A stretch of 63,991 nt of DNA, the filler included, from Barthelona sp. PAP020 (lineage: Eukaryota): assembly GCA_040182905.1 (NCBI GenBank). It is 39 parts of 39 records of this genome, joined end to end, with 100 filler letters (N's around TTAATTAATTAA, not from the genome) between each part and the next. Parts side by side here need not be neighbours in the genome. Positions count along the whole stretch, not along the records: positions 9,003 to 10,666 come from JARQWU010000933.1; 38 more parts are not named here. One strand, written 5' to 3'. A program made the translations under genes and the position numbers. Of this stretch, positions 1,815 through 62,661 are shown one piece after another; the stretch's first letter is position 1; each line of letters begins with the position of its first letter. The notes beneath the pieces are model-generated. The model was given only the letters and a program-made list of their open reading frames with translations, made no database searches and was not told the DNA's origin.

Positions 1815-1890
1815 TGCAAGACTCCTCCCTCGTTTTTTCTTTTCTTTCTGTTAAAATTTTGATACCTGTGTTGAGTTAAGTGACAATTTG

Positions 1891-3063
1891 ATGAGGAAAA
1901 CAATTTACGATATGTTTCCTCCCAAAATTGATGAAAAGAGTGTGAGAGAAATTAAAAGTGTTTCTGATACTATGAATTACAGTCAATACTTACCGGACGG
2001 TAAATATTTGATGGTTCGTGACAATGAATTTTTTTATGTGATTGATATAGAAGCTGGGAAACTGGATCATACTTTAAAAGATCTTTTAAAGCACGTTTAT
2101 GACGTTGCCATTTCACTCGATGGCCAAAAGTTGGCAACATGTTCCACTGATAAGTCTGTTATTGTTTACAACCTTCCAGATTTTTCCATGTTGTGTACAT
2201 TTACTCTCGGCAAGATTGTTCGGACAATTTGTTTTTCACATTGTTCCAATTACTTATATATTGGTGATGATATTGGAAACCTTCAGAAGTGGGATATAAG
2301 TCATTGTAACTTTGTTTTGAATGAAAGAATTCACTCCTCTTTTATTTGGAGATTAGAACTTTCGTTTGATGACAAGTATCTTTTGATTGGTTGTAGTGAT
2401 ACTGTCAAGTTGGTCGATGCGGACAATTTCTGTGTTGTTCGTGAATTCAATCAAGGTCAGTATACGATTGATATCAAATTTCACCCAACTGAAAGAATGA
2501 TCGCTGTCAGTGATCAGTTGAAAGTAAAACTTTGGAACACAGACGATGGATCTCTAATTCATACATTTGAGATGGGTGATGAAGCTTTGTATCTTCATTT
2601 CCTTACACCCAGTGTTTTGCTTGTTATGTCTAGAGATGGCTATATTACATCATATAATGTGGAAACCTATCAGGAGATTCAAAAGGTGCACTGTGATTGT
2701 GAACCATATTTCTCTTCCTTTGCCATATCACCTGATAAGAAACAGTTGGTATGCGGAAAATGTAAAGGTGATATCATCAAAATCTATTCAATTGTGCCTG
2801 GCTATGATCCCTCACATGAATCGGAACTTATTCAATTGTCAAAGGATGGTGGCCATGTGTTGTCGAATCTTATTGATTTGAATATGGATACTCAAGTCAT
2901 AAGACAATTGGTAGTGGCAGGGATGTACGTGAATGAAGAGGAGTATAGCATGATCGTTGACACATGCTGGGATTTGATTGACGTCAATGAAATGAATGGT
3001 GGCAATATGCACTTATTTATGAATGAACAAAGTGATCATACTGATGATAAAGATGCTGATTAG
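1891..3063 (+). CDS. WD40-repeat protein of an expanded family with a CWDLIDxNExNGGNM C-terminal motif
   Basis: Several WD-like repeats (LATCSTDKSVIVYN, LQKWD, VKLWN); paralogs at 27812-28817 and 56448-56561. Confidence 0.85.
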   Translation: MRKTIYDMFPPKIDEKSVREIKSVSDTMNYSQYLPDGKYLMVRDNEFFYVIDIEAGKLDHTLKDLLKHVYDVAISLDGQKLATCSTDKSVIVYNLPDFSMLCTFTLGKIVRTICFSHCSNYLYIGDDIGNLQKWDISHCNFVLNERIHSSFIWRLELSFDDKYLLIGCSDTVKLVDADNFCVVREFNQGQYTIDIKFHPTERMIAVSDQLKVKLWNTDDGSLIHTFEMGDEALYLHFLTPSVLLVMSRDGYITSYNVETYQEIQKVHCDCEPYFSSFAISPDKKQLVCGKCKGDIIKIYSIVPGYDPSHESELIQLSKDGGHVLSNLIDLNMDTQVIRQLVVAGMYVNEEEYSMIVDTCWDLIDVNEMNGGNMHLFMNEQSDHTDDKDAD

Positions 3064-3627: not shown

Positions 3628-3723
3628 ACCAAAACAGCAAAGATACCATGGAGTAATTTCCCCAACCCCAGTTAGTAAATATAAATTAAAGCCTTTAATT
3701 TTGCCCTTTCGTCTAACGTGAAA
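3628..3723 (-). repeat. tRNA-downstream modules C1+C2
   Basis: TTTCACGTTAGACGAAAGGGC...ACTAACTGGGGTTGGGG..., near-identical to 17860-17968. Confidence 0.9.
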
Positions 3724-3737
3724 CTATTCAATGTTGC

Positions 3738-3750
3738 AGACTCGATCCTC
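3738..3750 (-). promoter_or_regulatory. Extra downstream B-box-like motif GAGGATCGAGTCT
   Basis: Fits GWTCRANNC; 26 nt 3' of tRNA-Asn. Confidence 0.75.
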
Positions 3751-3776: not shown

Positions 3777-3849
3777 CGGTTCCGATGGGGCTCGAACCCA
3801 TGACCTTTGGATTAACAGTCCAATGCACTACCGACTGTGCTACGGAACC
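3777..3849 (-). tRNA. tRNA-Asn(GTT)
   Basis: GGTTCCG/CGGAACC acceptor stem, TTGGA-CTGTTAA-TCCAA anticodon arm, GGTTCGAG T-loop. Confidence 0.97.
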
Positions 3850-4083: not shown

Positions 4084-4380
4084 TTGGTCAAGTTTTGAAA
4101 CAAAATTATTAATTTTCAAAGAAAGAGCAACAAAGAAAACTCATTTCTTTAAATCGCAGCCATAGAAAACGTAAGGCTGCAATTGAATCTTGGTCATCAA
4201 GTATGAAAATTTTGAAAAATTATCCATCCCTTTTTTCTATATTTTTGCAAAACCAAAATTTTAAATTTTATATTTTACCTGGGAAAATCTAAAGTTTGCA
4301 ACAGATCAATTGGACCTCGAAAGCTTTTAACCAAATAAACACCATTCCTTATTATTCACTAATACACATCTTCTTGGCCT
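4084..4380 (-). repeat. Repeat family A, diverged near-full copy, 234 nt upstream of tRNA-Asn
   Basis: Aligns by eye along its length with 21707-22018. Confidence 0.85.
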
Positions 4381-5423: not shown

Positions 5424-5523
5424 TACTTGGGCATCTGAATCCACGTGAGTTTTTTCCCAAACCTTAAGCTAACTCGTTTCGTTGTTCACTGAACAACTCA
5501 TACCTCATAAATATCTAATAAAT
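5424..5523 (+). repeat. Repeat family B copy
   Basis: TACTTGGGCATCTGAATCCACGTGAG...AATATCTAATAAA. Confidence 0.9.
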
Positions 5524-5737
5524 TAAAATAAATTAAAATAAATTTTCTTTTAAATTGGTGTCAAAAAAAAAAAAAAGCATTTCACACAAAAATTTGAAGC
5601 ACATTTATTTTTTTAAGGAAAATAAATTTAACACATGAAAAGGGAATTGGGAAAAAAAAAAAAGGGGAGGGGGGATGGGAAAATGGAGATACTGCTTAAA
5701 ATCTCTTTTAATCTTTTTTTAATAAGCACCAATTGAC

Positions 5738-6679
5738 ATGAAAGTTTTATTAATTTATTACAGTACCACAGGAAATACCGATTTCATTGCGAAAGAAATC
5801 AGAAAAATCATGATAAAAAAAAATCATGAAGTTGACCTTTTCAATTTTAGGGCTGAAAATCGAAAAATTCTTCAAGGAAAATCCATTGATTATGAACTAT
5901 GGAAAAATTACGAATTATTTGGTTTTCTATCACCAACTTGGGGTTTTCAGCCTGTTGACTTTTTTGATAAATTTATTAAGTCAATTCCTGATGAAGTTTT
6001 CATTGAAAAATATTTCTTTAGTGTAGCGTTACATGCTGGAAACCCAGGTAGAACTAATAAAGACATCTTCTTTTCCATTATGAACAAAAATATGGGTTCT
6101 AAATTTGTAGGACAAACTCATGTTTTTGGACCTTCTAATTTTATTCAAGGAGGAAGACTGGAAGAAAATAGATATAAATATGTTTGGTCAAGGAAGCATT
6201 TCAGACATTTGCCTGATTTTGTGCAAAAAATATTTGAAAACATTGATAACAATAATATTATTGATGGAAAAATGGATGGTTTATTCAGTGGATTGTTTGG
6301 AAAAATTATTCCTAGAAGTCTGATGGGAGGTAGCATTAGATTTAGTCCTGAAACTTGTACTGGTTGTCAACGTTGTGTGAAATATTGTCCAACTCAAGCT
6401 ATTAAGTCAATTAAGAAAGACGAAAATGGTACTCTTATTATTGACTATGATGATAACATTTGCATTGGATGTAGTGGATGTGTGCAATATTGTCCCACTC
6501 ATTCTTTAAATATTGGTCGTTCTGTAGGCAAAGAGAGATATTATTTCAAGAAGAACATCGTTGTTGACACTGACTTCGATCCTTATTTTGTTAGAAATGA
6601 CCGTGCCAGTGAAATATTTGGCGATCTTGATACGAAAGAGGAAATTGCAAAGGAAAATGTTTCAGATGAAGAATTTTGA
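5738..6679 (+). CDS. EFR1-type flavodoxin / 2x[4Fe-4S] ferredoxin fusion
   Basis: N-terminal YYSTTGNT flavodoxin loop; CTGCQRCVKYCP and CIGCSGCVQYCP motifs. Confidence 0.9.
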   Translation: MKVLLIYYSTTGNTDFIAKEIRKIMIKKNHEVDLFNFRAENRKILQGKSIDYELWKNYELFGFLSPTWGFQPVDFFDKFIKSIPDEVFIEKYFFSVALHAGNPGRTNKDIFFSIMNKNMGSKFVGQTHVFGPSNFIQGGRLEENRYKYVWSRKHFRHLPDFVQKIFENIDNNNIIDGKMDGLFSGLFGKIIPRSLMGGSIRFSPETCTGCQRCVKYCPTQAIKSIKKDENGTLIIDYDDNICIGCSGCVQYCPTHSLNIGRSVGKERYYFKKNIVVDTDFDPYFVRNDRASEIFGDLDTKEEIAKENVSDEEF

Positions 6680-9002: not shown

Positions 9003-9100
9003 GCAGCCACTCATTTTCTGTGGCTGAGATTTAATGAAATGAGTTTTCTCTGATTACTTTTTCTTTGTAAATAAATATAGTTGTTTCACAACTTGACCAA
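9003..9100 (+). repeat. Repeat family A 3' end, 237 nt upstream of tRNA-Phe
   Basis: GCAGCCACTCATTTTCTGTGGCTG...CACAACTTGACCAA. Confidence 0.9.
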
Positions 9101-9337: not shown

Positions 9338-9412
9338 GCGTCTTTAGCTCAGTTGGTAGTTAGCGTTAGACTGAAGATCTAAAGGTCCCGAGTTCAATCC
9401 TCGGAAGACGCA
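9338..9412 (+). tRNA. tRNA-Phe(GAA)
   Basis: GCGTCTT/AAGACGC acceptor stem, TTAGA-CTGAAGA-TCTAA anticodon arm, followed by a T5 terminator. Confidence 0.96.
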
Positions 9413-9437: not shown

Positions 9438-9450
9438 GAGGATCGAGTCT
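9438..9450 (+). promoter_or_regulatory. Extra downstream B-box-like motif GAGGATCGAGTCT
   Basis: 25 nt 3' of tRNA-Phe. Confidence 0.75.
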
Positions 9451-9464
9451 GGCAATTAGGGAAT

Positions 9465-9662
9465 TTCAACAATGGAGAAGACAATTCACGTTAGACGAAA
9501 GGGCAAAATTAAAGGCTTTAATTTATATTTAGGTGTGTTATTGAAATGAGTAGTTGGGAAAGCCTTGAATTTGAATCCTGGCTGTTTGAAATGACTTAGT
9601 TCCGATTGAAAGATTGGACGATATTGAATCCCTAAAAAAAAGAAATGACTTCAATAACTTTG
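9465..9662 (+). repeat. tRNA-downstream modules (TTCAACAAT stub, C1, body of C3)
   Basis: Matches 3675-3723, 13957-14132 and 17682-17827. Confidence 0.9.
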
Positions 9663-10767: not shown

Positions 10768-12399
10768 TTGAATAATTTTTCAAGTGGAAAATCTTTCTCC
10801 ATTTCAGTACTCCCTGATGATGTTTCCAAGACAATAATCAAGCATATAGTTAATATGGGAAAAAATCTGCAATCAACCCAAAATCTACAAATGAATGAAC
10901 AGTCCAAAATGGACACTTTAGAACGTAAGAATAAGATGGAAAAGGTACAGCATAAAGTCAATGAAGTTGAAAATAGGCGTTTAAATTCAGATTTTGACAT
11001 TCCCATTATCGATTATAAGGCACTAAATATTTCAACAGTATTAGGATCAGGTGGATATGGTACAGTTAGCAAAGGAACATATCAACATGCTGATATTGCT
11101 GTTGAGTTAACATTTGATTCAACTGAAGAAAAAGTCAAAGATGAATGCATTGCAACGGCATTTCCTCATCAATTTATATGTAAAGTGTATGGTATCATGT
11201 AGGGAAATCGATCGTACAATTCAGTGGGGTTTTGTGATGGAATATTGTTCATACACACTGAGTAGAAGGATGCATGAAATGACTGTTCTTGAGAGATTAA
11301 TTAGTATGTTACAACTGGCTTCTGCACTTGAGTTTTGTCATAACAAGGGTGTGATTCATCGAGATGTCAATCCAAAGAATGTTTTGATCAGAAATGATGG
11401 AACAACTGCTCTTTGTAATTTTGGGCTTGTTCGTTGTTTTGAAAGAAATAGTAGGTTATCTACTGTGGGAACGATTTGTTATATGCCTCCTGAATTGGTA
11501 AACAATGAAATTTTTGCTCATCCTGGCATTGATTGCTGGGCATTTGCAACAACTTACTTTGAAGTGATGACAATGTTTAAGCCTTTTAAAGGAATTTCTG
11601 ATCGTACAAGTCCTCTAAAATTAAAGAAGGGTAAATTGCCTTTTAAACGTGAAGAATTAGAATTAGCCATTGGATATAATTTTATATCTCAGTGTTTTTA
11701 TCCTGACCCTAATAAAAGACCAATGTTTTCAGAAATAGTTGAGTATCTCGATGGGTTGATTGTGGATTTGAAAAAATGTGTTTCCCTCATTATTCGTGAT
11801 TATTTTAAGAAACATAATTTGGAAGAAAATAACGGAAAAGAAAAGAAAAGAGTTGAGTTCACTATTTGTGATTCTTATGAGAAACATAAATTGTATGAAG
11901 TTGTTGTCCCGGATAATTTTTCCAAATATTGCAATACAGAGACAATACACCATTATGTACGAAATGGAAATTTACAAGCAGTCAAACAATGGATAAAGAC
12001 TGGAAATGAAGGAGAAACGGCTCTTTGGGAGGCTTCTTCTTATGGGAACAGTGCTATTGTTAAGTTTGTGTTGGATTTTGAGGTTGATGTGAACTTTTGT
12101 ATGAATACTAGTGTCTCTTCATTATTTGCTGGTTGTGAAAATCAGCATAGTTATGTGTTTCGAACTCTTTTAGACAAAGAAACTGATACTAACTATTGTA
12201 AGATCAATGGAGTTTCTTCGTTGTGTATCAGTTGTTCAAAGGGATATTTGAATATTGCTAAAATGCTCTTAGATCACGGGGTTGATATCAGTTTGTGCAA
12301 TAATGATGGTGTTTCTCCATTGTTTGTTGGTTGTTACAATGGTCATTTTGATATTGCCAAAATACTTCTTGATTATGGAGCTGACGTTGATTTATGTAG
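10768..12399 (+). pseudogene. Frameshifted TKL-like kinase + ankyrin-repeat gene
   Basis: GSGGYGTV and VYGI lie in one frame, GFVMEY/HRD in another (shift near 11197); VAVK appears as IAVE and DFG as NFG; intact-looking paralog at 58200-59624. Confidence 0.8.
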
Positions 12400-13524: not shown

Positions 13525-13956
13525 GAATTCATTGTTATGGTAATGAATTCTCATAAGGTTTTTGCTTCAAAATAAATGCAACCCATGTTCATTATCATTC
13601 TTTGTTGCGTGGACATTTTTTGCGGTGAAAAAAAATGAAAATTTCGTAAAAACGCAAAAAAAAAGCTATACTGATAACTAATGTCCTATATGTAGGTTAT
13701 ATATGTCTTCTTTATGAAAATGTTTGTAAAATCTTTTACCTTTTATTTTCATAATTTTTAAAGACTTTTATTTTTTATGTTAACCCATTACGTTGGGTTT
13801 GGTATAGTTAGAAGTTTTTTGATGGGATGTTCGACGCCAAAATGTTTTGGTATACACATACCATTTGGATAAAAAATTTTACTTTTCATTTTGTTATCCC
13901 TTGGATTTTTATTTTTACAAGCCTAAGTTCTTGATGTGCATGTAAATTCCAAGAAA

Positions 13957-17974: not shown

Positions 17975-17987
17975 AGACTCGATCCTA
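17975..17987 (-). promoter_or_regulatory. Extra downstream B-box-like motif TAGGATCGAGTCT
   Basis: 25 nt 3' of tRNA-Ala. Confidence 0.75.
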
Positions 17988-18012: not shown

Positions 18013-18085
18013 TGGACTATCAGGGCGTCGATCCCCGTGCCTCCCGCATGCTAAGCGGGTGCTCTACCAGGTGAGCTAATAGCCC
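18013..18085 (-). tRNA. tRNA-Ala(AGC)
   Basis: G3:U70 pair, CCCGC-TTAGCAT-GCGGG anticodon arm, GATCGA T-loop as in eukaryotic tRNA-Ala, T-run terminator. Confidence 0.97.
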
Positions 18086-18349
18086 ATAAAGAAACGAAAA
18101 ATCTATGATATATAAAATAAAATGGTTAATGTTTCAAAATTATATGTTGATGACAGTTTTCTCTTTTTCAGATCCACAAAGAGCAAATCTTTTCTTTTCT
18201 TAAAACAATTTCTAATCATTACAAATAAAATTTATTGGAGCTGAAGTATTTTGTTAAATATGCCGTTTGTGCAGATTTAATTTTCTCTTTCAATTCAATC
18301 AACCATCATATAAACCTAATTTTTACAACGCCAAAACAAGAATTCTTGC

Positions 18350-18400
18350 ATTCTTTTTTATTCACTCATACCCACAGTGCTTCTTAGCTTGGAAATAATT
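18350..18400 (-). repeat. Repeat family A stub, about 265 nt upstream of tRNA-Ala
   Basis: TTCACTCATACCCACAGTGCTTCTTAGCTTGGAAATAATT. Confidence 0.8.
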
Positions 18401-21706: not shown

Positions 21707-22018
21707 TTATTTCCAAGCCAAGAAGCACTGTGCGTATAAGTGAATAAAAAAGAATGGTGTTTATTTGGTTAAAGGCTTTCGAGGGCCGATTGATCTCTTG
21801 AAAAACATAGATTTTCTAAGGTAAAGTTTAAACTTTAAAATTTTGCTTTTGCAAAAATAGAAAAAAATAGGAATGAAGAATTTTTCCAAAATTTTCATAC
21901 TTGATAAGCAAGATTCAATTGCAGCCACTCATTTTCTGTGGCTGACATTTAATGAAATGAGTTTTCTCTGATCACTTTTTCTTTGTAAATAAATAAAGTT
22001 GTTTCACAACTTGACCAA
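21707..22018 (+). mobile_element. Repeat family A, full-length (~310 bp) non-coding element
   Basis: Reference copy with defined ends TTATTTCCAAGCC...CTTGACCAA; about 10 full or partial copies in the window. Confidence 0.75.
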
Positions 22019-24456: not shown

Positions 24457-24684
24457 AAAGTTTAAACTTTACCTTAGAAAATCTAAAGTTTTTCAACAGA
24501 TCAATCGGGCCTCGAAAGCCTTTAACCAAATAAACACTATTCTTTTTTATTCACTTATACGCACAGTGCTTCTTGGCTTGGAAATAATTGGGCATCTGAA
24601 TCCACGTAAGTTTTTTCCCAAACCTTAAGCTAACTCGTTTCGTTGTTCATTGAACAACTCATACCTCATAAATATCTAATAAAA
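24457..24684. repeat. Family A (minus) abutting family B (plus)
   Basis: Junction GGAAATAA-TTGGGCATCTG near 24588. Confidence 0.9.
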
Positions 24685-29153: not shown

Positions 29154-29244
29154 ACCAACGTGGTGTAATTAGTAGCACACTTGTCGTTTATTGAATTCAT
29201 TGCTTCGTTATTGAGGGGTCCTCGTGCAATTCGAGGCGTTGGTA
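29154..29244 (+). ncRNA. Atypical tRNA-like gene (91 nt), anticodon undetermined
   Basis: Perfect acceptor stem ACCAACG/CGTTGGT+A, D stem GTGT/GCAC, T stem CCTCG/CGAGG and T8 terminator; 36-nt irregular anticodon region. Confidence 0.75.
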
Positions 29245-31555: not shown

Positions 31556-32440
31556 TTAGTGTAAATTAGTTTTCTTTGAATATATGTGATATTTGGGTTC
31601 ACGAACATCACCTCCTAAAATTAATAAGGAATTTGAAACACAAAAAGCTTCAGAACCAAAACTATCAACACTTTGAATCAATGTTTTGTCAACAATACTC
31701 CATATTGAAACAATATTTTTTTCTTGCAAAGCAATTAAAATGTCATTTTGACAAAAATCAAAATCAATAACGGAAACTCCATCGTTTAATGAGAGGATTC
31801 TTTTCATTTTTTCAATATCCCATATTTCTACACCTCTATCATAACTGCTTATTGCAATTTGACTGTAATCAAAATTAAATTTGACACAAGTAACTTGCTT
31901 TTCATATTGAAAAGTCTTTTCGATATTAAATGAATCATCTAATAATTTAGCTTTACCATCATATGAACCAGTTATAATAAATCTATCATTCAAAGAAACA
32001 TCCAAACGCCAAATAGGTTTTGAATGAACTTTTTTTCTTTTAACTAATCTTCCAGTTAAACAATCAAATTCAGACAAATATCCATTATTCCCACCAACAA
32101 AAATATGAGAAGAAACTTTTGAAAACGCACAGCAACAACAACCACCAGTGCTTTCTAAAGTTCTGGTCAAATGCCAATCATTAGTATTGTAGAGATTTAT
32201 CGTGCGATCCCAAGAAGCAGTTGCCAAAGTATTTCCAGAAGAGGAAAATGCTACATGATGTACTTGATGTTTATGGTCATCTAAATCAATTATTAGTGAC
32301 ATAGAATCAACATCCCATACTTCAACGGTCATATCTTCACTCGCACTGGCAAAAAATTTTCGATTTGGTGAAAAACACATGGAAACAACAATTTCTGAAT
32401 GATCATTCTCAATTTCATAACTCTCTTTTTCTAAAAACAT
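31556..32440 (-). CDS. WD40-repeat protein
   Basis: ASASEDMTVEVWD, ATASWDRTINLYN, ITGSYDGKAKL. Confidence 0.9.
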   Translation of the reverse strand: MFLEKESYEIENDHSEIVVSMCFSPNRKFFASASEDMTVEVWDVDSMSLIIDLDDHKHQVHHVAFSSSGNTLATASWDRTINLYNTNDWHLTRTLESTGGCCCCAFSKVSSHIFVGGNNGYLSEFDCLTGRLVKRKKVHSKPIWRLDVSLNDRFIITGSYDGKAKLLDDSFNIEKTFQYEKQVTCVKFNFDYSQIAISSYDRGVEIWDIEKMKRILSLNDGVSVIDFDFCQNDILIALQEKNIVSIWSIVDKTLIQSVDSFGSEAFCVSNSLLILGGDVREPKYHIYSKKTNLH

Positions 32441-32769
32441 GATGATTTGTTGAACAAAATGATAAAATCAAAATGGGTGGAAAAAAAAAATCATTTTATT
32501 TGCATGCGGAAAAATATGAAATTTCCAAAAAAAAACATATATGAACAAGCACATTTTACAAAAATTGTGTCAAGAAAACTATATTTGAAAAGCTTAGAAA
32601 TACTTGGATAATTCGATGCAAAGATCAATGACACGGTTGGAATAACCAGCTTCATTATCATACCAAGNNNNNNNNNNNNNNNNNNNNNNNNNNNNNNNNN
32701 NNNNNNNNNNNTTAATTAATTAANNNNNNNNNNNNNNNNNNNNNNNNNNNNNNNNNNNNNNNNNNNNAT

Positions 32770-34679: not shown

Positions 34680-35241
34680 TTTCCAAGCCAAAAGACACTG
34701 AGTGTCTAAGTGAACGAAGAAGAATTATTTCCAAGCCAAGAAGCACTGTGTGTATGAGTGAATTAAAAGAATACTGTTTATTTGGTTAAAGGCTTTCGAG
34801 GCCCGATTGATCTGTTGAACTATAGATTTTTTAAGGTAATGTGGAAGTTCCTGCTCAATGAACAAAATTTATTGGAGATATTAAGAGGTCATCAAATATC
34901 ACTTCCATTATTAATTGTTGCTTGACCACCTTTAGGTCCAATTCTTTAAGTTACTTGGGCATCTGAATCCACGTGAGTTTTTCCCAAACCTTAAGCTAAC
35001 TCGTTTCGTTGTTCACTGAACAACTCATACCTCAAAAATATCTAAGAAAGTTTAAACTTTAAAATTTTGCTTTTGCAAAAATCAAAAGAATGGGAATGGA
35101 AAATTTTTCCAAAATTTTCATACTTGATGATTAAGATTCAATTGCAGCCCCTCATTTTCTGTGGTTGAGATTTAATGAAATGAGTTTTTTCTGATTGCTT
35201 TCTCTTTGTAAATAAATATAGTTGTTTCACAACTAGACCAA
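34680..35241 (+). mobile_element. Family A copy with a duplicated head and family B inserted (34840-35045)
   Basis: A sequence is split at AAGGTAA/AGTTTAAAC by a B copy. Confidence 0.85.
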
Positions 35242-39337: not shown

Positions 39338-39470
39338 AGTTGGATATAAACTGTTCAGAATTTATTGTTGAAATTTATAAACATTTATTATTATTGTCGT
39401 GTGAAAAAGCTTTTATTAAATGTTTATTATTTTGTCGAGTGAATGAGCCAGTAGATGATGTGTTGTTGAA
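39338..39470 (-). repeat. Stack of four TTCA-headed module stubs downstream of tRNA-Glu
   Basis: TTCA at 39470, 39443, 39405 and 39372; the last three match the heads of C4', C4 and C7. Confidence 0.85.
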
Positions 39471-39507
39471 AGTTATTCAAATTTCCAAAGATATAATTGG
39501 TTTTTCC

Positions 39508-39520
39508 AAACTCGATCCTC
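39508..39520 (-). promoter_or_regulatory. Extra downstream B-box-like motif GAGGATCGAGTTT
   Basis: 28 nt 3' of tRNA-Glu; one mismatch to the other copies. Confidence 0.7.
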
Positions 39521-39548: not shown

Positions 39549-39621
39549 CTCCGATACCGGGATTCGAACCCGGTTCTGCGGGGTGAAAACCCACTATCCT
39601 AACCAAGTAGACTATATCGGA
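39549..39621 (-). tRNA. tRNA-Glu(TTC)
   Basis: TCCGATA/TATCGGA acceptor stem, GTGGG-TTTTCAC-CCCGC anticodon arm, GGTTCGAATCC. Confidence 0.96.
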
Positions 39622-39801
39622 CATGAAAAAAAGCAAATAAATGCATTTGCATAAATGTTCACATACAACCAAATACTATTACTTTGATAGAATAACTTGC
39701 TATTGACAATGGTTATAAACATATTATATGTAGTTTATTTTGATGTAATTAGGTCTACACATATTCCAGCAAGTTAAGAAGAAAGAATGTTTATACTCGT
39801 A

Positions 39802-40124
39802 ATTATTTCCAGGCCAAGAAGCATTGTGCGTATGAGTGAATAAGAAAGAATAGTGTTTATTTGGTTAAAGGCTTTCGAGGCCCGATTGATCTGTTGAAAA
39901 ACTTTAGATTTTCTGAGGTAAAGTTCAAACTTTAAAATTTTGCTTTTGCAAAAATACAAAAAAATAGGAATGAAGAATTTCTCCAAAATTCTCCTAATTG
40001 ATCGTTCCAATTACATCTCAGTCCCTCAATTCCCCTCCTGGGATTTTGACTAAAATTTGCTAGAATGAGTTTTCTGAGTTTACTTTCTTTGTAAATAAAT
40101 ATAGTTGTTTCACAAATAGACCAA
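39802..40124 (+). repeat. Family A (subfamily A2), about 180 nt upstream of tRNA-Glu, inverted relative to the other loci
   Basis: A termini, with a variant middle shared with 55866-56015. Confidence 0.85.
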
Positions 40125-45878: not shown

Positions 45879-46801
45879 TAATATTCCATAGAAATGAAAA
45901 ATAAAATATTTTTTGAAAATGGTTTTTTCCTTCCTTTTCTTTGACTTTTTCTCTCATTGACATTTCTTTTATTATTGTTTAAATGTTGAATAAATGTTGT
46001 CACAAGACTTGCCAATTCATTTCTTTTCTTTTGAAACCCATTTTTTTATCAATGATAAAAAAAAAAAACTCAACAAAATTACTTATTTTATGACACAAAA
46101 ATTTGAAGCAATCATTGTAAATTTTCTTCAATTTCAATAATGAATCAAATAATCTCATTTCATACAGACAGATGTATTCTTAGAAAAAACAAAAACACCA
46201 TAATAAATGATGCTGTAACTAATGTTATTTTGAAATTAAGTGTTATTCAAAATGATTCTCACCTAAAAAATGAAAAAAATTTGATTTTGTTCTCAAAAAC
46301 TCATATGTTGAACAAAATTAAATTGAATCTCGAAATTGTACAACGAAAATAATGATAATGGGTTTCACTCAACAATTCACCAATTTATTCTCCAATAAAA
46401 ATTTCTAGTAGATACCATAATATTGATAAAAGCAAATAATTCTTCAATATTCTATGAAAATCAGTTCATTGTTTTCAGATCTACACTAATAATTCAATAA
46501 CAGGCTTGAAAAAATTACAATTTTTGGAAATAAAAGATGTTTTCATCACTCAAACCTTTGTTTATATAAAAACAAGCTAACTTGAATTAAATTCATTCCG
46601 AATTTATAATGCTTTTTCAAATTTGCCCAAATTTTTTTCAACACAGTGGCATTTGAATTAACATACGTTTAATTTTTCTTTCAATTGTCAAAAGAGATGA
46701 ATATTCATGAAATCATGTGTGAAAATATTGGAAAAATTCAACCAAATTCCAAAAGGTCATTCATTTTATTTAATTTTATTTCACTTTTCTTTAACTATTT
46801 C

Positions 46802-47142
46802 ATGAAGATTAGTTTATTTTTGTGCAGTATTTTTGCTATTTTTGTTGTTTCAATAGCGTCTGATGTTACTCATCTTCATTGTGTTGCTGATTCTACTGGT
46901 GTTATTAGTTTGGTTACAACCCCTTCTGCTAATGTCAAAGTCATCGCTTGGGCTACTTTTGAAGATACTCTTTTTACTGAAGGTTTTAGAAAATTGCATG
47001 TCCATATTATTGAAGGATCTGCTGCACCTAGAACTCAAATGTATTGTGCTGGTCAATTAGAAGGTTATCTTTCACAAGGACCAATTGATCAACATCGTGA
47101 AACTTTATGGACTTTAATGGATATTGATGCCAAGCGCCATAA
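46802..47142 (+). CDS. Phospholipase B-like protein, N-terminus (joins 53537-54998)
   Basis: Signal peptide MKISLFLCSIFAIFVVSIAS; MYCAGQLEGYLS; last ~99 nt are identical to the end of contig 53537-54999. Confidence 0.9.
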
Positions 47143-53536: not shown

Positions 53537-54998
53537 TGATCACCAGCAACACATTTGTTTGCCTTACCACACCAACCACATTTTTCATTAAGGAAACATT
53601 CATCTTGTGACAACTTGGGGCAAACAGTGGGGTCAAAGAAAGGAACCCAATCAAAAGTTTCCAATTGGGCTTTAGTGGGAATACCAGTCTTGGGATAATC
53701 AGCAAATTCAGGTCTAGTTAAATCAACCATGTCATAATGAGAATTACCACTACCAGTTGTGGGACGACCAATAGCTCTCATCCATTGATTTTCAGCATAT
53801 CTAGAAGAAGTATATTTGGTATCAAGACAACCAAAAGCTAAAGGAGTTTTTCTTAAATCGTAACGAGAGGCAATGGCAGAACCAGGATCATTTCTTTGAT
53901 CAGGATCAGTAACATCATTATAACGCATCAAATCTTCGAATTGTTTTTCCTTGTCAACATTAGGGGCTTGATGTTCAAAGATCCAATGACGAGAGCAATT
54001 GTAATAGTCCCAATATCCAGGATCATTGTGCTCTTTAGCCCATTCAGCAACCTTTTCAGGATATCCAGAACGATTAGAAATTTCAGGGAAATAAGGGATG
54101 TTATAAGAAGGCCAGTAACCCCAATCCAATAATTTATCTGTTAAATCATCATAAACAATTTTACCAGGGGTTTGTTCTAAAACATATAAAGTTTCGGCAG
54201 AAGGTTTTTTTCCATTGCTGAACTTCTTGAAGTCCACAATAACCCATTGATTATTATAAGTACCAGAGTTATACATGGAGAAAATATCGGCCCATTCCTT
54301 ACCAGAAGAAGCATATCTATTGGCAACAGTAACACGCATCCATTCTAAAACAGATTGAGGCTTGATGAACTTGAATAAAGAATCATTGAAAACACCAAAA
54401 GTAGTTTCAAGCATGGACATCTTTTGATCAGTAACATAGAAATCATCAAATGAATATAAAAGACCAGGATAAGATGAAAAAACAATCTTTTGAGTGGAAG
54501 TATGAGCAGCAGTTCCAATGGGGAAATCATATTCTTTGAGGAAACGATTCATGGCAGAATAATAATACCAAGCATCTTGTCCAATGAAAATGTCGGAATA
54601 ATCATCCAAAAGACGGACCAAACCGGAACAATGTTCAGCACCAGTGTGATCAGTGGTCTTGTTAATAATTCCAGCCAAATCAACGAGATCTCCAATAGCT
54701 TCATATTCCCAAAAATCAGCAAGTTCAAGTTTTCCACCAGCTTTTTGATAACCATCATGAAGTCCTAAGAATTGATTGTATGTCAAATCGACATGATACC
54801 AATATGTGCTCAAAGTACGATAATTTTTAGTGTTTTCAACAATGAATTCACGGTTAGTTTTAAGGAATTCATGCAACTTATCCCAGTTGATTGGTTCATT
54901 ATGGCGCTTGGCATCAATATCCATTAAAGTCCATAAAGTTTCACGATGTTGATCAATTGGTCCTTGTGAAAGATAACCTTCTAATTGACCAGCACAAT
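53537..54998 (-). CDS. Phospholipase B-like (PLBD, Ntn-hydrolase) with a C-terminal PSI-like domain
   Basis: HCSGL autocleavage site, FSSYPG, NSGTYNNQW, YWPSYNIP, MRYND; ends ECFLNEKCGWCGKANKCVAG. Confidence 0.92.
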
Positions 54999-55099
54999 TN
55001 NNNNNNNNNNNNNNNNNNNNNNNNNNNNNNNNNNNNNNNNNNNTTAATTAATTAANNNNNNNNNNNNNNNNNNNNNNNNNNNNNNNNNNNNNNNNNNNN

Positions 55100-55135
55100 A
55101 GTTGGATATAAACTGTTCAGAATTTATTGTTGAAA
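55100..55135 (-). repeat. Module C7 head
   Basis: TTTCAACAATAAATTCTGAACAGTTTATATCCAACT, identical to 39338-39373. Confidence 0.9.
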
Positions 55136-55147
55136 TTTCAGATTCAG

Positions 55148-55160
55148 AGACTCGATCCTC
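55148..55160 (-). promoter_or_regulatory. Extra downstream B-box-like motif GAGGATCGAGTCT
   Basis: 26 nt 3' of tRNA-Asp. Confidence 0.75.
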
Positions 55161-55186: not shown

Positions 55187-55258
55187 CTCTCTCGCGGGGA
55201 ATCGAACCCCGGTCCCAAGCGTGACAGGCTTGAATGATGACCACTACACTACGAAAGA
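55187..55258 (-). tRNA. tRNA-Asp(GTC)
   Basis: TCTTTCG/CGAGAGA acceptor stem, CAAGC-CTGTCAC-GCTTG anticodon arm, GGTTCGATTCC. Confidence 0.96.
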
Positions 55259-55535: not shown

Positions 55536-56015
55536 TTGGTCAAGTTGTGAAACAACTATATTTATTTACAAAGAAAAAGCAATCAGAAAAAACTCATTTC
55601 ATTAAATCTCAGCCACAGAAAATGAGTGGGTGCAATTGAATCTTAATCATCAAGAATGAAAATTTTGTAAAAATTTTCCATTCCCTTTTTTTTGTATTTT
55701 TGAAAAAGCAAAATATTAAAGTCTAAACTTTACCTTAGAAAATCTAAAGTTTTTCAACAGATCAATCATTGGGCCTTAAAAGCCTTTAACCAGACAAAAA
55801 CCATTCTTCTTTATTCACTCATACGCACAGTGCTTCTTGGCTTGGAAATAATTGCCATAAAATAAATTCAAAATACTCACTTTGATGAATTTTAGTCAGT
55901 ACCAAAACGGAGAATTAAAGGACTGAAATGTAACTTCGATGATCAAGTGGGAAAATTTGGTGAAAATTTCTTGTCCCTGTTCTTTGTATTTTTGCAAAAG
56001 CAAAATTTTAAAGTT
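55536..56015 (-). repeat. Full family A copy (55536-55853; 277 nt upstream of tRNA-Asp) plus a partial A2 copy
   Basis: Aligns with 21707-22018 and 39930-40080. Confidence 0.88.
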
Positions 56016-58199: not shown

Positions 58200-59624
58200 A
58201 CAGCCATCATTCATACATAAATTAATATTGGCCCCATGATCTAAGAGCATTTTAGCAACATCAAGATGACCCTTTTCACAACTGATGTACAATGGAGAAG
58301 CACCTTTATTATTGCACAAATTAACATCAGCCCCATGATCCAAGAGCATTCTGGCAACATCAAGATGACTATAATAACAACTGATGTGCAATGGAGAAAA
58401 TCCCTCATTCTCACACAAATTAACATCAGCTCCATGATCCAAGAGTATTCTGGCACCATCAAGATGACCTTTTTTACAACTGATGTACAATGAAGAAGCA
58501 CCATTATTCTTACACAAATTAACGTTTGCTCCATGATCCAAGAGCATTTTGGCAACATCAAGATAACCTTCTTGACAACTGATGTACAATGGAGAAATAC
58601 CATCATCAGGACACAAATTAACATGAGCGCCATAATCTAAGAGCATTCTGGCAACATCAAGATGACCTTTTTCACAACTAATCCACAATGGAGAAGCATC
58701 ATCATCCCTACACAAATTAACATCAGCTCCATAATCCAAGAGAATTTTGGCAACATCAAGATGACCCTTTTGACAACTAATGTATAATGGAGAAGTACCA
58801 TTGTGATTGCACAAATTGATATCAGCCCCATAATCCAAGAGCATTTTGGCAACATCAAGATGACCATTATAAGAACTGATGTACAATGGAGAAGTACCAT
58901 CATTCACAGTCAAATTAACATGAGCGCCAAAATCCAACAAAAATTCAACAACCATGATATGCCCATCAAAAGCAGCTCCCCAAAGCGATGTCCTTCCTTC
59001 CTTGCCCTGTTTGTTCACATCAACGCCAGCTTTGATACACTGCTTGACAACATCAAGATTACCTTCAAGCGCTGCAAAATAGATCTTCTTTGGGCGACCA
59101 TTATCTTCAAATCCATCCACATCGAACCCATTTGGAACAACAACTTGATCCATGTTATACTTAACATGAGGATCAACTTCCTCTTCAATACCTGTCTCTT
59201 CAACCACAGTATCGATAAGCATCTTCAGATAATCAGCAATCAACTCGAACGACGGACGCTCGGTAGGGTTTTCATCGAAACACAGCTTTACAATACCATG
59301 GCCAGGAATCGAATCAATCATCTCATCGGAGTATGGCAATTTCCCATTAAGCAAATACCTGTACGCTTTACGATCATCAATGCCCTCAAAAGGACGAACG
59401 CCTGTCATTACATAAATCATCATCACAGCAAACGCCCACACATCGATAGCCTTTCGATTAATTTCATCCTCATTTTCCCAAACAAGTATTTCAGGAGCAA
59501 TGTATGCAATAGCTCCTACCATAGAAACCATTGAAAAACTGTTGGCATCTTTCACAGTTCCAAAATCGCTCAAAGCAGGAATAAACTTTCCACTTACCTT
59601 CCTCAAAAGAACATTGTTGGGTTT
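58200..59624 (-). CDS. TKL-like kinase plus tandem ankyrin repeats (partial at both ends)
   Basis: KPNNVLL, DFG, APE, DVWAF; about 9 repeats SPLYISCxxGHLDVAKMLLDYGADVN. Confidence 0.92.
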
Positions 59625-61252: not shown

Positions 61253-62661
61253 GAAAAGGAAAAAGATGTTAGAATGTCCAATATTAAACAAGCTAAATCT
61301 GTTGCTGATGCAGTACGTACTTCACTTGGCCCAAAAGGTATGGATAAAATGATTGTTGACGAAAATGGAAATGTCACAGTTACAAATGATGGAGCTACCA
61401 TTATGAAATTAATGCAAGTGATGCATCCTGCTGCTAATATGCTTGTAGATATTTCTCATGCCCAAGATATTGAAGCTGGTGATGGTACAACATCTGTTGT
61501 TGTTTTGACTGGAGCTTTATTAGATGCTGCATATGGACTTCTTGAAAGAGGTATCCATTCTTCACAAATTAGTACTGGTTTCCAATATTGTCGTGACAAG
61601 GCCATTGAATATCTGAAGAACATGGCTATTCCTGTCGATTTGGGAAATCAAGAAGTTTTATTGAAGAATGCCAAAACATCTTTAAATTCTAAAATTGTGT
61701 CTCAATATTCAGATCATCTTGCACCACTTGCTGTTGAAGCAGTTACTTCAATCATTGATCCTGCTTTAGGTGAAAATGTTGATTTAAACTATATTCGTAT
61801 TGTGAAGAAAGTTGGTGGTTCAGTCGAAGATACAAATCTTGTTCAAGGATTAGTCTTTTCAAGTGAATCAATTGATGGCGTCGCTGCCACTCGTGTTGCT
61901 ACAGGACCTGCTCGTGTTGAAAATGCAAATATTGGTCTTATTCAATTTGCCCTTTCCTCTCCTAAAACCAATATGGACGGTAACATCGTTATATCTGATG
62001 CTGATGCCATGAAAAGATTGGTTGATGAAGAAAGAAGATATATTTTGAAGATGGTCAAAACAATCAAAAAGTCTGGATGTAATGTCCTCTTAGTTCAAAA
62101 GAATGTCTTGCGTGAAGGTGTTTCTGATCTTGCTTTACACTATCTTAGTAAGGTTAAGATTCTTGTAATCAAGGATGTTGAAAGAAAGGATATTGATTTC
62201 ATCACAAGAACTACTGGTGCCTTACCTATTGCTTCTATTGATCATTTTTCTTCTGAAAAACTTGGTTTTGCCAGACTCGTTCAACAAAGATCACTTGATG
62301 GTGGCAAATTGGTTGAAATTACTGGTTGTGAAGGACCTCGTGTTGAAGGACACACTTGTACTATTTCTGTTCATGGTGCTTCTGAATACATTGTTGACGA
62401 AGTCGAAAGATCAATCCATGATGCCTTGTGTGTTATTAGAGCTCTTGTTAAGGAAAAAGCATTGTTGCCTGGTGGAGGATCACCTGAAATTGAACTTTCA
62501 CACTTATTGTATCAACATTCTCGAGAAGTGTCTGGTGTCAATTCATTGTGTCTTCGTGCCTTTTCTGAAGCATTGGAGATTATTCCCACCACACTTGCTG
62601 AAAACGCTGGTTTAAATCCTGTTGAAACAATTACAAAACTCAGAGCTGCTCACACAAATGG
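61253..62661 (+). CDS. CCT4: Chaperonin CCT delta subunit (partial)
   Basis: [52 protein letters not shown]. Confidence 0.93.

Follow-up and report, generated by a model that had tools for sequence, protein, structure and literature searches.

The internal B box of a tRNA gene is also the T-loop of the tRNA, so its conservation is silent on transcription factors, whereas conservation of an extragenic B box is informative about them. The general B-box pattern is GWTCRANNC. External B boxes (exB) have been reported approximately 41 bp behind 66% of the tRNA genes of Dictyostelium discoideum (PMC3159450), and a further account places them at approximately 80% of Dictyostelium tRNA genes, around 100 bp from the internal box, where they are said to widen the window of the retroelement TRE3 (PMC5911963). 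In yeast, a downstream B block has been reported as essential for the U6 gene (PMC5855946).

No external or downstream B box at metamonad tRNA genes was found in the freely accessible literature searched, and within that literature such a layout is described only for the unrelated Dictyostelium. The term 'tRNA' is absent from the main text of a paper on barthelonid genomes (PMC11316075), and terms for TFIIIC are absent from its text supplements. Here, a near-identical 12-base copy of a B box is described 3' of all five canonical tRNA genes, representing five isotypes, in one stretch of DNA.

The window and its host

The window, that is, the whole stretch of 63,991 nucleotides that was analysed, is composed of 39 contigs of 1.2-1.7 kb with a G+C content of 20-40%, joined by 38 N-linkers. 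Each linker has the structure N44-TTAATTAATTAA-N44, and the contigs are unrelated to one another and ordered by length. Since 39 short contigs have been joined, the five tRNA loci are separate and neighbourhood across linkers is meaningless. The content is that of eukaryotic genes, many present as long unbroken reading frames.

For the CCT-delta protein encoded at 61253-62659, a protist transcriptome collection contains an identical sequence. Among named entries, the best matches were from a dragonfly (653 bits, 57%, a longer protein) and from Barthelona sp. PCE (608 bits, 60%), and the 120 matches listed include no entry named as a dictyostelid. A tree was built for this one gene from 23 of the best 120 proteins, omitting the dragonfly entry and containing no other metamonad and no amoebozoan. 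The window protein and Barthelona sp. PCE were paired with support of 98/95, the Barthelona branch being flagged as long, and that pair joined two 'Eukaryota sp. TZLM' entries, which we take to be Skoliomonas, with support of 100/99. Because of the pairing with Barthelona sp. PCE, the host is likely a barthelonid metamonad, an anaerobic flagellate, and not a relative of Dictyostelium. Barthelonids and Skoliomonas have been placed as the sister group to Fornicata (PMC13087550; PMC11316075).

Several further genes were noted. The plus-strand frame at 5726-6676 combines a flavodoxin-like domain with a ferredoxin carrying two 4Fe-4S clusters, a fusion that fits an anaerobe. The plus-strand frame at 275-1105 encodes a protein of 277 residues without a Pfam match, for which a protein atlas suggested, as no more than a lead, the large subunit of TFIIF (score 0.87) and, more weakly, RPC5. 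The frames at 46673-47142 (plus strand) and 53539-54999 (minus strand) lie on two contigs with an overlap of 100 identical bases and appear to be a single phospholipase B gene that the assembly has divided in two. A related pair of genes combining a kinase with ankyrin repeats occurs at 11111-12397 (plus strand) and 58200-59624 (minus strand); together with two similar WD40 genes at 1855-3060 and 31559-32467, this pair hints at expanded families.

tRNA genes and the motif behind them

tRNA genes were called using ARAGORN and Rfam, which yielded five canonical genes on five different contigs. Calls made by ARAGORN at low threshold were mostly noise. The five genes, with the position of the T run after each, are as follows.

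9338-9412, plus strand, tRNA-Phe(GAA), internal A and B boxes intact, T5 run at +2
3777-3849, minus strand, tRNA-Asn(GTT), T4 run at +3
18013-18085, minus strand, tRNA-Ala(AGC), T7 run at +1
39549-39621, minus strand, tRNA-Glu(TTC), T4 run at +5
55187-55258, minus strand, tRNA-Asp(GTC), T4 run at +3

Internal B boxes are intact in the canonical genes. A B-box-like motif of 13 nt follows each of the five.

9438-9450, plus strand, motif behind tRNA-Phe, reading GAGGATCGAGTCT
3738-3750, minus strand, motif behind tRNA-Asn
17975-17987, minus strand, motif behind tRNA-Ala
39508-39520, minus strand, motif behind tRNA-Glu, with T for C at the equivalent of tRNA base 61
55148-55160, minus strand, motif behind tRNA-Asp

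Exact occurrences of the pattern AGGATCGAGT in the window number five; each tRNA gene is followed by one on its own strand, and no further site appears in the window when one mismatch is allowed. The earlier note had named, as an outcome that would count against its proposal, a motif equally common away from tRNA genes; within the window this is not the case. Remeasured from the discriminator base, the 13-mer starts after 26 (Asn), 25 (Phe), 25 (Ala), 28 (Glu) and 26 nt (Asp), which reproduces the distance of 25-28 nt given in that note for all five canonical genes. The equivalent of G53 accordingly falls at +30, +29, +29, +32 and +30, in the same order. Measured from G53 to G53, the external box is 49-52 bp past the internal B box, and it is 81-84 bp past the A box.

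Mean pairwise identity reaches 0.94 within the 13-mer and drops to 0.42 in the preceding spacer and 0.41 in the following sequence. The spacer is purine-rich; compared with shuffled spacers, its likeness among genes was not significantly raised (p 0.07 without gaps, 0.17 with gaps), in keeping with the earlier statement that it is not conserved. The longest word common to the five flanks is 10 nt, compared with at most 7 nt for five random 60-mers from the window (20,000 draws), and in leave-one-out scans the held-out sites scored 19.8-24.1 bits versus at most 12.5 bits for any other position. The raw count of five sites with up to one mismatch was matched in 2 of 100 shuffles; it is therefore the position behind tRNA genes, and not the count, that constitutes the significant evidence. 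A weak 3' extension is present, with A at +13 in all five sites and at +14 in four of the five. The motif is a real and highly non-random element. The sample comprises five genes in one window, on short contigs bounded by repeats, and is thus small and biased.

Since the motif resembles a T-loop and T4 terminators can leak, it might act in RNA: it could be a signal carried by the trailer of read-through precursors, or what is left of another tRNA gene or small RNA gene. Against this, a T4-T7 run precedes the motif in all five genes, and no Rfam match was found at the motif at E values up to 5. T-stem pairs number 2-3 of 5 at the external sites versus 5 of 5 at the internal boxes. No fold shared by the flanks was found, which folded no better than shuffled sequences (z 0.02 to 1.62). 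Having neither a T-stem nor a shared fold, the motif behaves as a DNA site and not as an RNA structure, and a role in RNA appears highly improbable. A sharp island of conservation in otherwise unrelated flanks is as expected of a site bound by protein.

Relationship of the motif to the TFIIIC B box

A matrix was derived exclusively from the five internal B boxes and used to rank 118,792 positions. Four of the external sites ranked 8th and the Glu site 52nd, which lends support to the identity as a B box proposed previously. Ranked above the four external sites were four internal boxes, two reverse readings of them and one word at 13829. This last, a B-box-like word, was rejected as a Pol III gene; the sequence around it resembles another repeat. 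The earlier claim that the core fits GWTCRANNC held in full for four of the five external sites and failed for the Glu site, which departs from the pattern at C61. The equivalents of G52, G53, T55, C56, G57 (R57) and A58 are kept in all five external sites and C61 in four; these are B-box positions reported to be contacted by yeast tauB (PMC11724288). The distance from the A box to the external box lies inside the natural A-to-B range of 31-93 bp given in the same source (PMC11724288). We infer that the motif is a second, extragenic B box to which TFIIIC would bind through its tauB part, and assign this reading a probability of roughly 0.68.

Several observations weigh against TFIIIC. Ten bases are invariant among the external sites, including A54, G59 and T60, where the internal boxes vary, and judged from the sequences this invariance is stricter than TFIIIC would need. 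C61 has been reported as important for the binding of tauB (PMC11724288), and the Glu site is without it. The internal B boxes being intact, the need for a spare box is not evident. The motif might instead be the site of a lineage-specific DNA-binding protein other than TFIIIC, such as one that acts at the ends of tRNA genes in termination, as a barrier or in nucleosome positioning, or one that has taken the place of a lost TFIIIC. The near-invariance at bases that vary in the internal boxes would suit such a protein, as would the report that TFIIIC is undetectable in Giardia, a member of Fornicata, while present in Trichomonas (PMC3369914). A downstream helper could also be useful since the terminator is only a T4 run in three of the five genes. 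However, a rank of 8th among 118,792 positions under a matrix made from internal B boxes, in the orientation of the gene, would be surprising for the site of an unrelated factor, and a factor other than TFIIIC is considered unlikely.

Repeats flanking the tRNA genes

Repeats designated family D lie 3' of each box on the strand of the gene. Their heads read TTCAC or TTTCAAC and are stacked and cut short. A profile made from 13 heads gave 16 hits with E below 0.01 on 9 contigs; the copy behind tRNA-Asp was added through identity at 39 of 39 nt to a head in the Glu stack.

9464-9662, plus strand, family D stack behind the Phe box, possible short head at 9464 and firm head at 9485
3628-3722, minus strand, family D behind the Asn box, reaching the contig end
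17682-17968, minus strand, family D behind the Ala box, three stacked heads, reaching the contig end
39277-39471, minus strand, family D stack behind the Glu box, possible short head at 39471 and firm heads at 39443, 39405 and 39373
55100-55135, minus strand, family D head behind the Asp box, cut at the contig end
9897-10153, 13957-14132, 21082-21185, 29251-29361, 40343-40689 and 44175-44470, other family D copies

Family D repeats are short and diverged. They carry a near-palindrome that lies approximately 30 nt into the repeat as well as an internal A-run, and full copies finish with TTGACC. The repeats of a second family, U, measure about 316 bp; each of the five tRNA genes has a copy 178-279 nt upstream, and four further contigs also carry the family.

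55538-55853, minus strand, family U reference copy, nearest edge 279 nt before tRNA-Asp
4084-4378, minus strand, family U copy, 234 nt before tRNA-Asn
9003-9098, plus strand, family U copy truncated at the start of its contig, 238 nt before tRNA-Phe
18349-18400, minus strand, family U fragment, 263 nt before tRNA-Ala
39801-40122, plus strand, family U copy in opposite orientation to the gene, 178 nt before tRNA-Glu
1593-1714, 21707-22016, 24457-24589 and 34723-35239, other family U copies
1345-1444, 5424-5522, 24585-24684 and 34952-35049, a third repeat of about 100 bp, inside or beside family U

In both families the first bases are TTTC(C/A)A or TTCAC, and T(T/A)GACC closes several of the copies; with heads and ends alike, D and U may be one kind of element. 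Among 29 frames of the window scanned against Pfam, none encodes a reverse transcriptase, integrase or transposase. Neither a terminal poly(A) nor a clear target-site duplication was found at the repeats, whose copies are short or cut by contig ends. Family D 20-mers had no match in viral contigs; family U 20-mers had one isolated match of 20 bases, which was read as chance. Family U occurs on 9 and family D on 10 of the 39 contigs, and each occurs on five of the five tRNA contigs (Fisher p 2e-4 and 4e-4, respectively); short contigs are enriched in repeats, so this apparent flanking of tRNA genes is inflated.

With D repeats after and U repeats before all five genes, the motif might be the end or relic of a mobile element that targets tRNA genes, inserted 25-28 nt behind them and later shortened by other repeats. 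A fixed distance from the tRNA has been reported as typical of such elements (PMC5911963), short contigs favour genes hit by repeats, and likeness among the 12 nt past the box slightly exceeds that of shuffled sequence (p 0.0065, noticed after the fact). Opposing this origin, conservation falls sharply on both sides of the motif, from 0.94 to about 0.4. The linkers between box and first head differ in both length and sequence, the heads belong to different D subfamilies, and no box was present in the 70 nt before any of seven D heads inspected away from canonical tRNA genes. It follows that the box is not part of family D, and the motif was found in none of the D or U copies inspected. The earlier note had recognised that its proposal would fall if the motif proved to be the terminus of one transposon, an outcome at odds with this two-sided stop and with the boxless copies. 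Nor does the motif look like a tRNA 3' end displaced by an integrase, the 12 nt from the last base of the box matching the end of the gene at 0-5 of 12 positions, as for other tRNAs. Descent from a mobile element is judged quite improbable.

The idea that the box positions the downstream insertions is compatible with the placing of the D heads. Firm D heads begin 25 (Asn), 16 (Ala) and 22 nt (Asp) after the G of the box, that is, within 16-25 nt in three of the five genes, and 44 (Phe) and 74 nt (Glu) after it in the others, where possible short heads begin after 23 and 46 nt, respectively. The same repeats also occur without a box, and the loci are few. The interval between gene and box is free of insertions in all five boxed genes.

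A sixth, atypical tRNA-like cloverleaf is present at 29154-29244 on the plus strand, followed by a T8 run, and was missed by default ARAGORN and by Rfam. It has an acceptor stem of 7 pairs with A1-U72, a D stem of 4 pairs without the usual GG, an enlarged anticodon arm and a T stem of 5 pairs with the abnormal loop TGCAATT. The T-loop is a poor B box, ranking 958th by the internal-B-box matrix. No external box was found behind the cloverleaf up to the contig end, beyond which one may have been pushed, so that in this biased sample of contigs the box accompanies all five canonical tRNA genes but not the single atypical one. A family D head begins within the T-run of the cloverleaf, 27 nt after its own G53. 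The boxless cloverleaf and the boxed genes fit insertion at the 3' edge of whatever occupies the last B box, the cloverleaf being a single case.

Proposed mode of action and significance

TFIIIC would bind the external box through tauB. As the box is outside the transcribed unit, TFIIIC could remain in place during the passage of Pol III through the internal box, and from there could still reach the A box, favouring loading and reloading of the gene; this pairing with the A box is modelled on the downstream B block of yeast U6 (PMC5855946). The bound factor would shield the terminator region from insertions and would set the landing edge for tRNA-seeking repeats of family D.

If correct, the extragenic B box would provide evidence at the DNA level of a TFIIIC-like binder in the sister group of the lineage of Giardia, and a ready bait with which to catch that factor. 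It would also constitute a second origin of the Dictyostelium layout, in which a downstream B box is combined with mobile elements flanking tRNA genes, so that the two cases could be compared. A more far-reaching and decidedly tentative possibility is that barthelonids, as sister of a lineage in which TFIIIC looks lost, moved their main TFIIIC anchor outside the tRNA genes and independently rebuilt the whole Dictyostelium arrangement: almost all tRNA genes would have a downstream B box, an undescribed family of mobile elements would insert at the border of the bound factor, and a related family would lie upstream.

Comparison with known systems

Collections of other sequences were scanned for a tRNA pattern followed by the box. 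At least 120 metagenome loci and 11 virus loci were returned; among the 131 matches listed, 10 loci, all of 49-69% GC, had the word 3' of a called tRNA. None of these 10 loci showed similarity to the window, and the word was behind 0 of 11 other tRNAs there. A second scan returned at least 120 loci in prokaryote genomes and 9 virus loci, with the word behind 2 of 12 tRNAs among the matches listed and no similarity to the window. The metagenome, virus and prokaryote matches were read as chance, these collections being without relatives as far as seen.

The ETC sites of yeast are likewise stand-alone B boxes, with conservation 3' of the core and a possible role as barriers; they differ in lying away from tRNA genes and in having a 10-base extension, whereas the motif described here is tied to tRNA genes and is extended by at most two A residues (PMC3395662; PMC11724288). 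Neither the location away from Pol III genes nor the 10-base 3' extension that define an ETC site is seen for the motif. SNR6, the U6 gene of Saccharomyces cerevisiae, also has a B box past the transcribed region combined with an intragenic A box. It is described as having no internal B box and a distance near 200 bp from A to B box (PMC5855946), in contrast to the intact internal box and the separation of 81-84 bp at the present tRNA genes.

Among mobile elements, the repeats recall TRE3 and Skipper-2, which insert downstream of tRNA genes, and TRE5, which inserts upstream, in that heads lie 45-90 nt behind the tRNAs, tandem stacks are formed and a second family lies upstream (PMC5006619, PMC5911963, PMC5391098). 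Dictyostelid TRE5 is reported about 50 bp upstream, whereas U copies lie 178-279 nt upstream and in either orientation (PMC5006619, PMC5911963, PMC5391098). TRE3 and TRE5 encode a reverse transcriptase and an endonuclease and have a poly(A) end; no such frame was found among the 29 scanned here, where copies are short or cut. The repeats neighbouring the motif are short and non-coding as far as sequenced, and are not classed as TRE3 or TRE5.

The exB of Dictyostelium discoideum is closest in arrangement, with a B-box-like motif 3' of a tRNA gene whose internal box is intact, in a protist genome that is compact and AT-rich, and with repeats on both the downstream and the upstream side of the gene. 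The host here is likely a metamonad, whereas Dictyostelium is an amoebozoan. The box lies at +29 to +32 after the gene here versus approximately 41 bp in Dictyostelium (PMC3159450), and at 49-52 bp from the internal box versus approximately 100 bp (PMC5911963). It is nearly invariant here, in contrast to exB, and five of the five sites fail the published Dictyostelium consensus GTTCRAnYC, having A in place of T at position 54 (PMC3159450). Compared at the level of sequence, the element resembles exB by anatomy and is set apart from it by spacing and position 54. Because the host is likely a barthelonid, the likeness to exB is probably the result of convergence from an independent origin.
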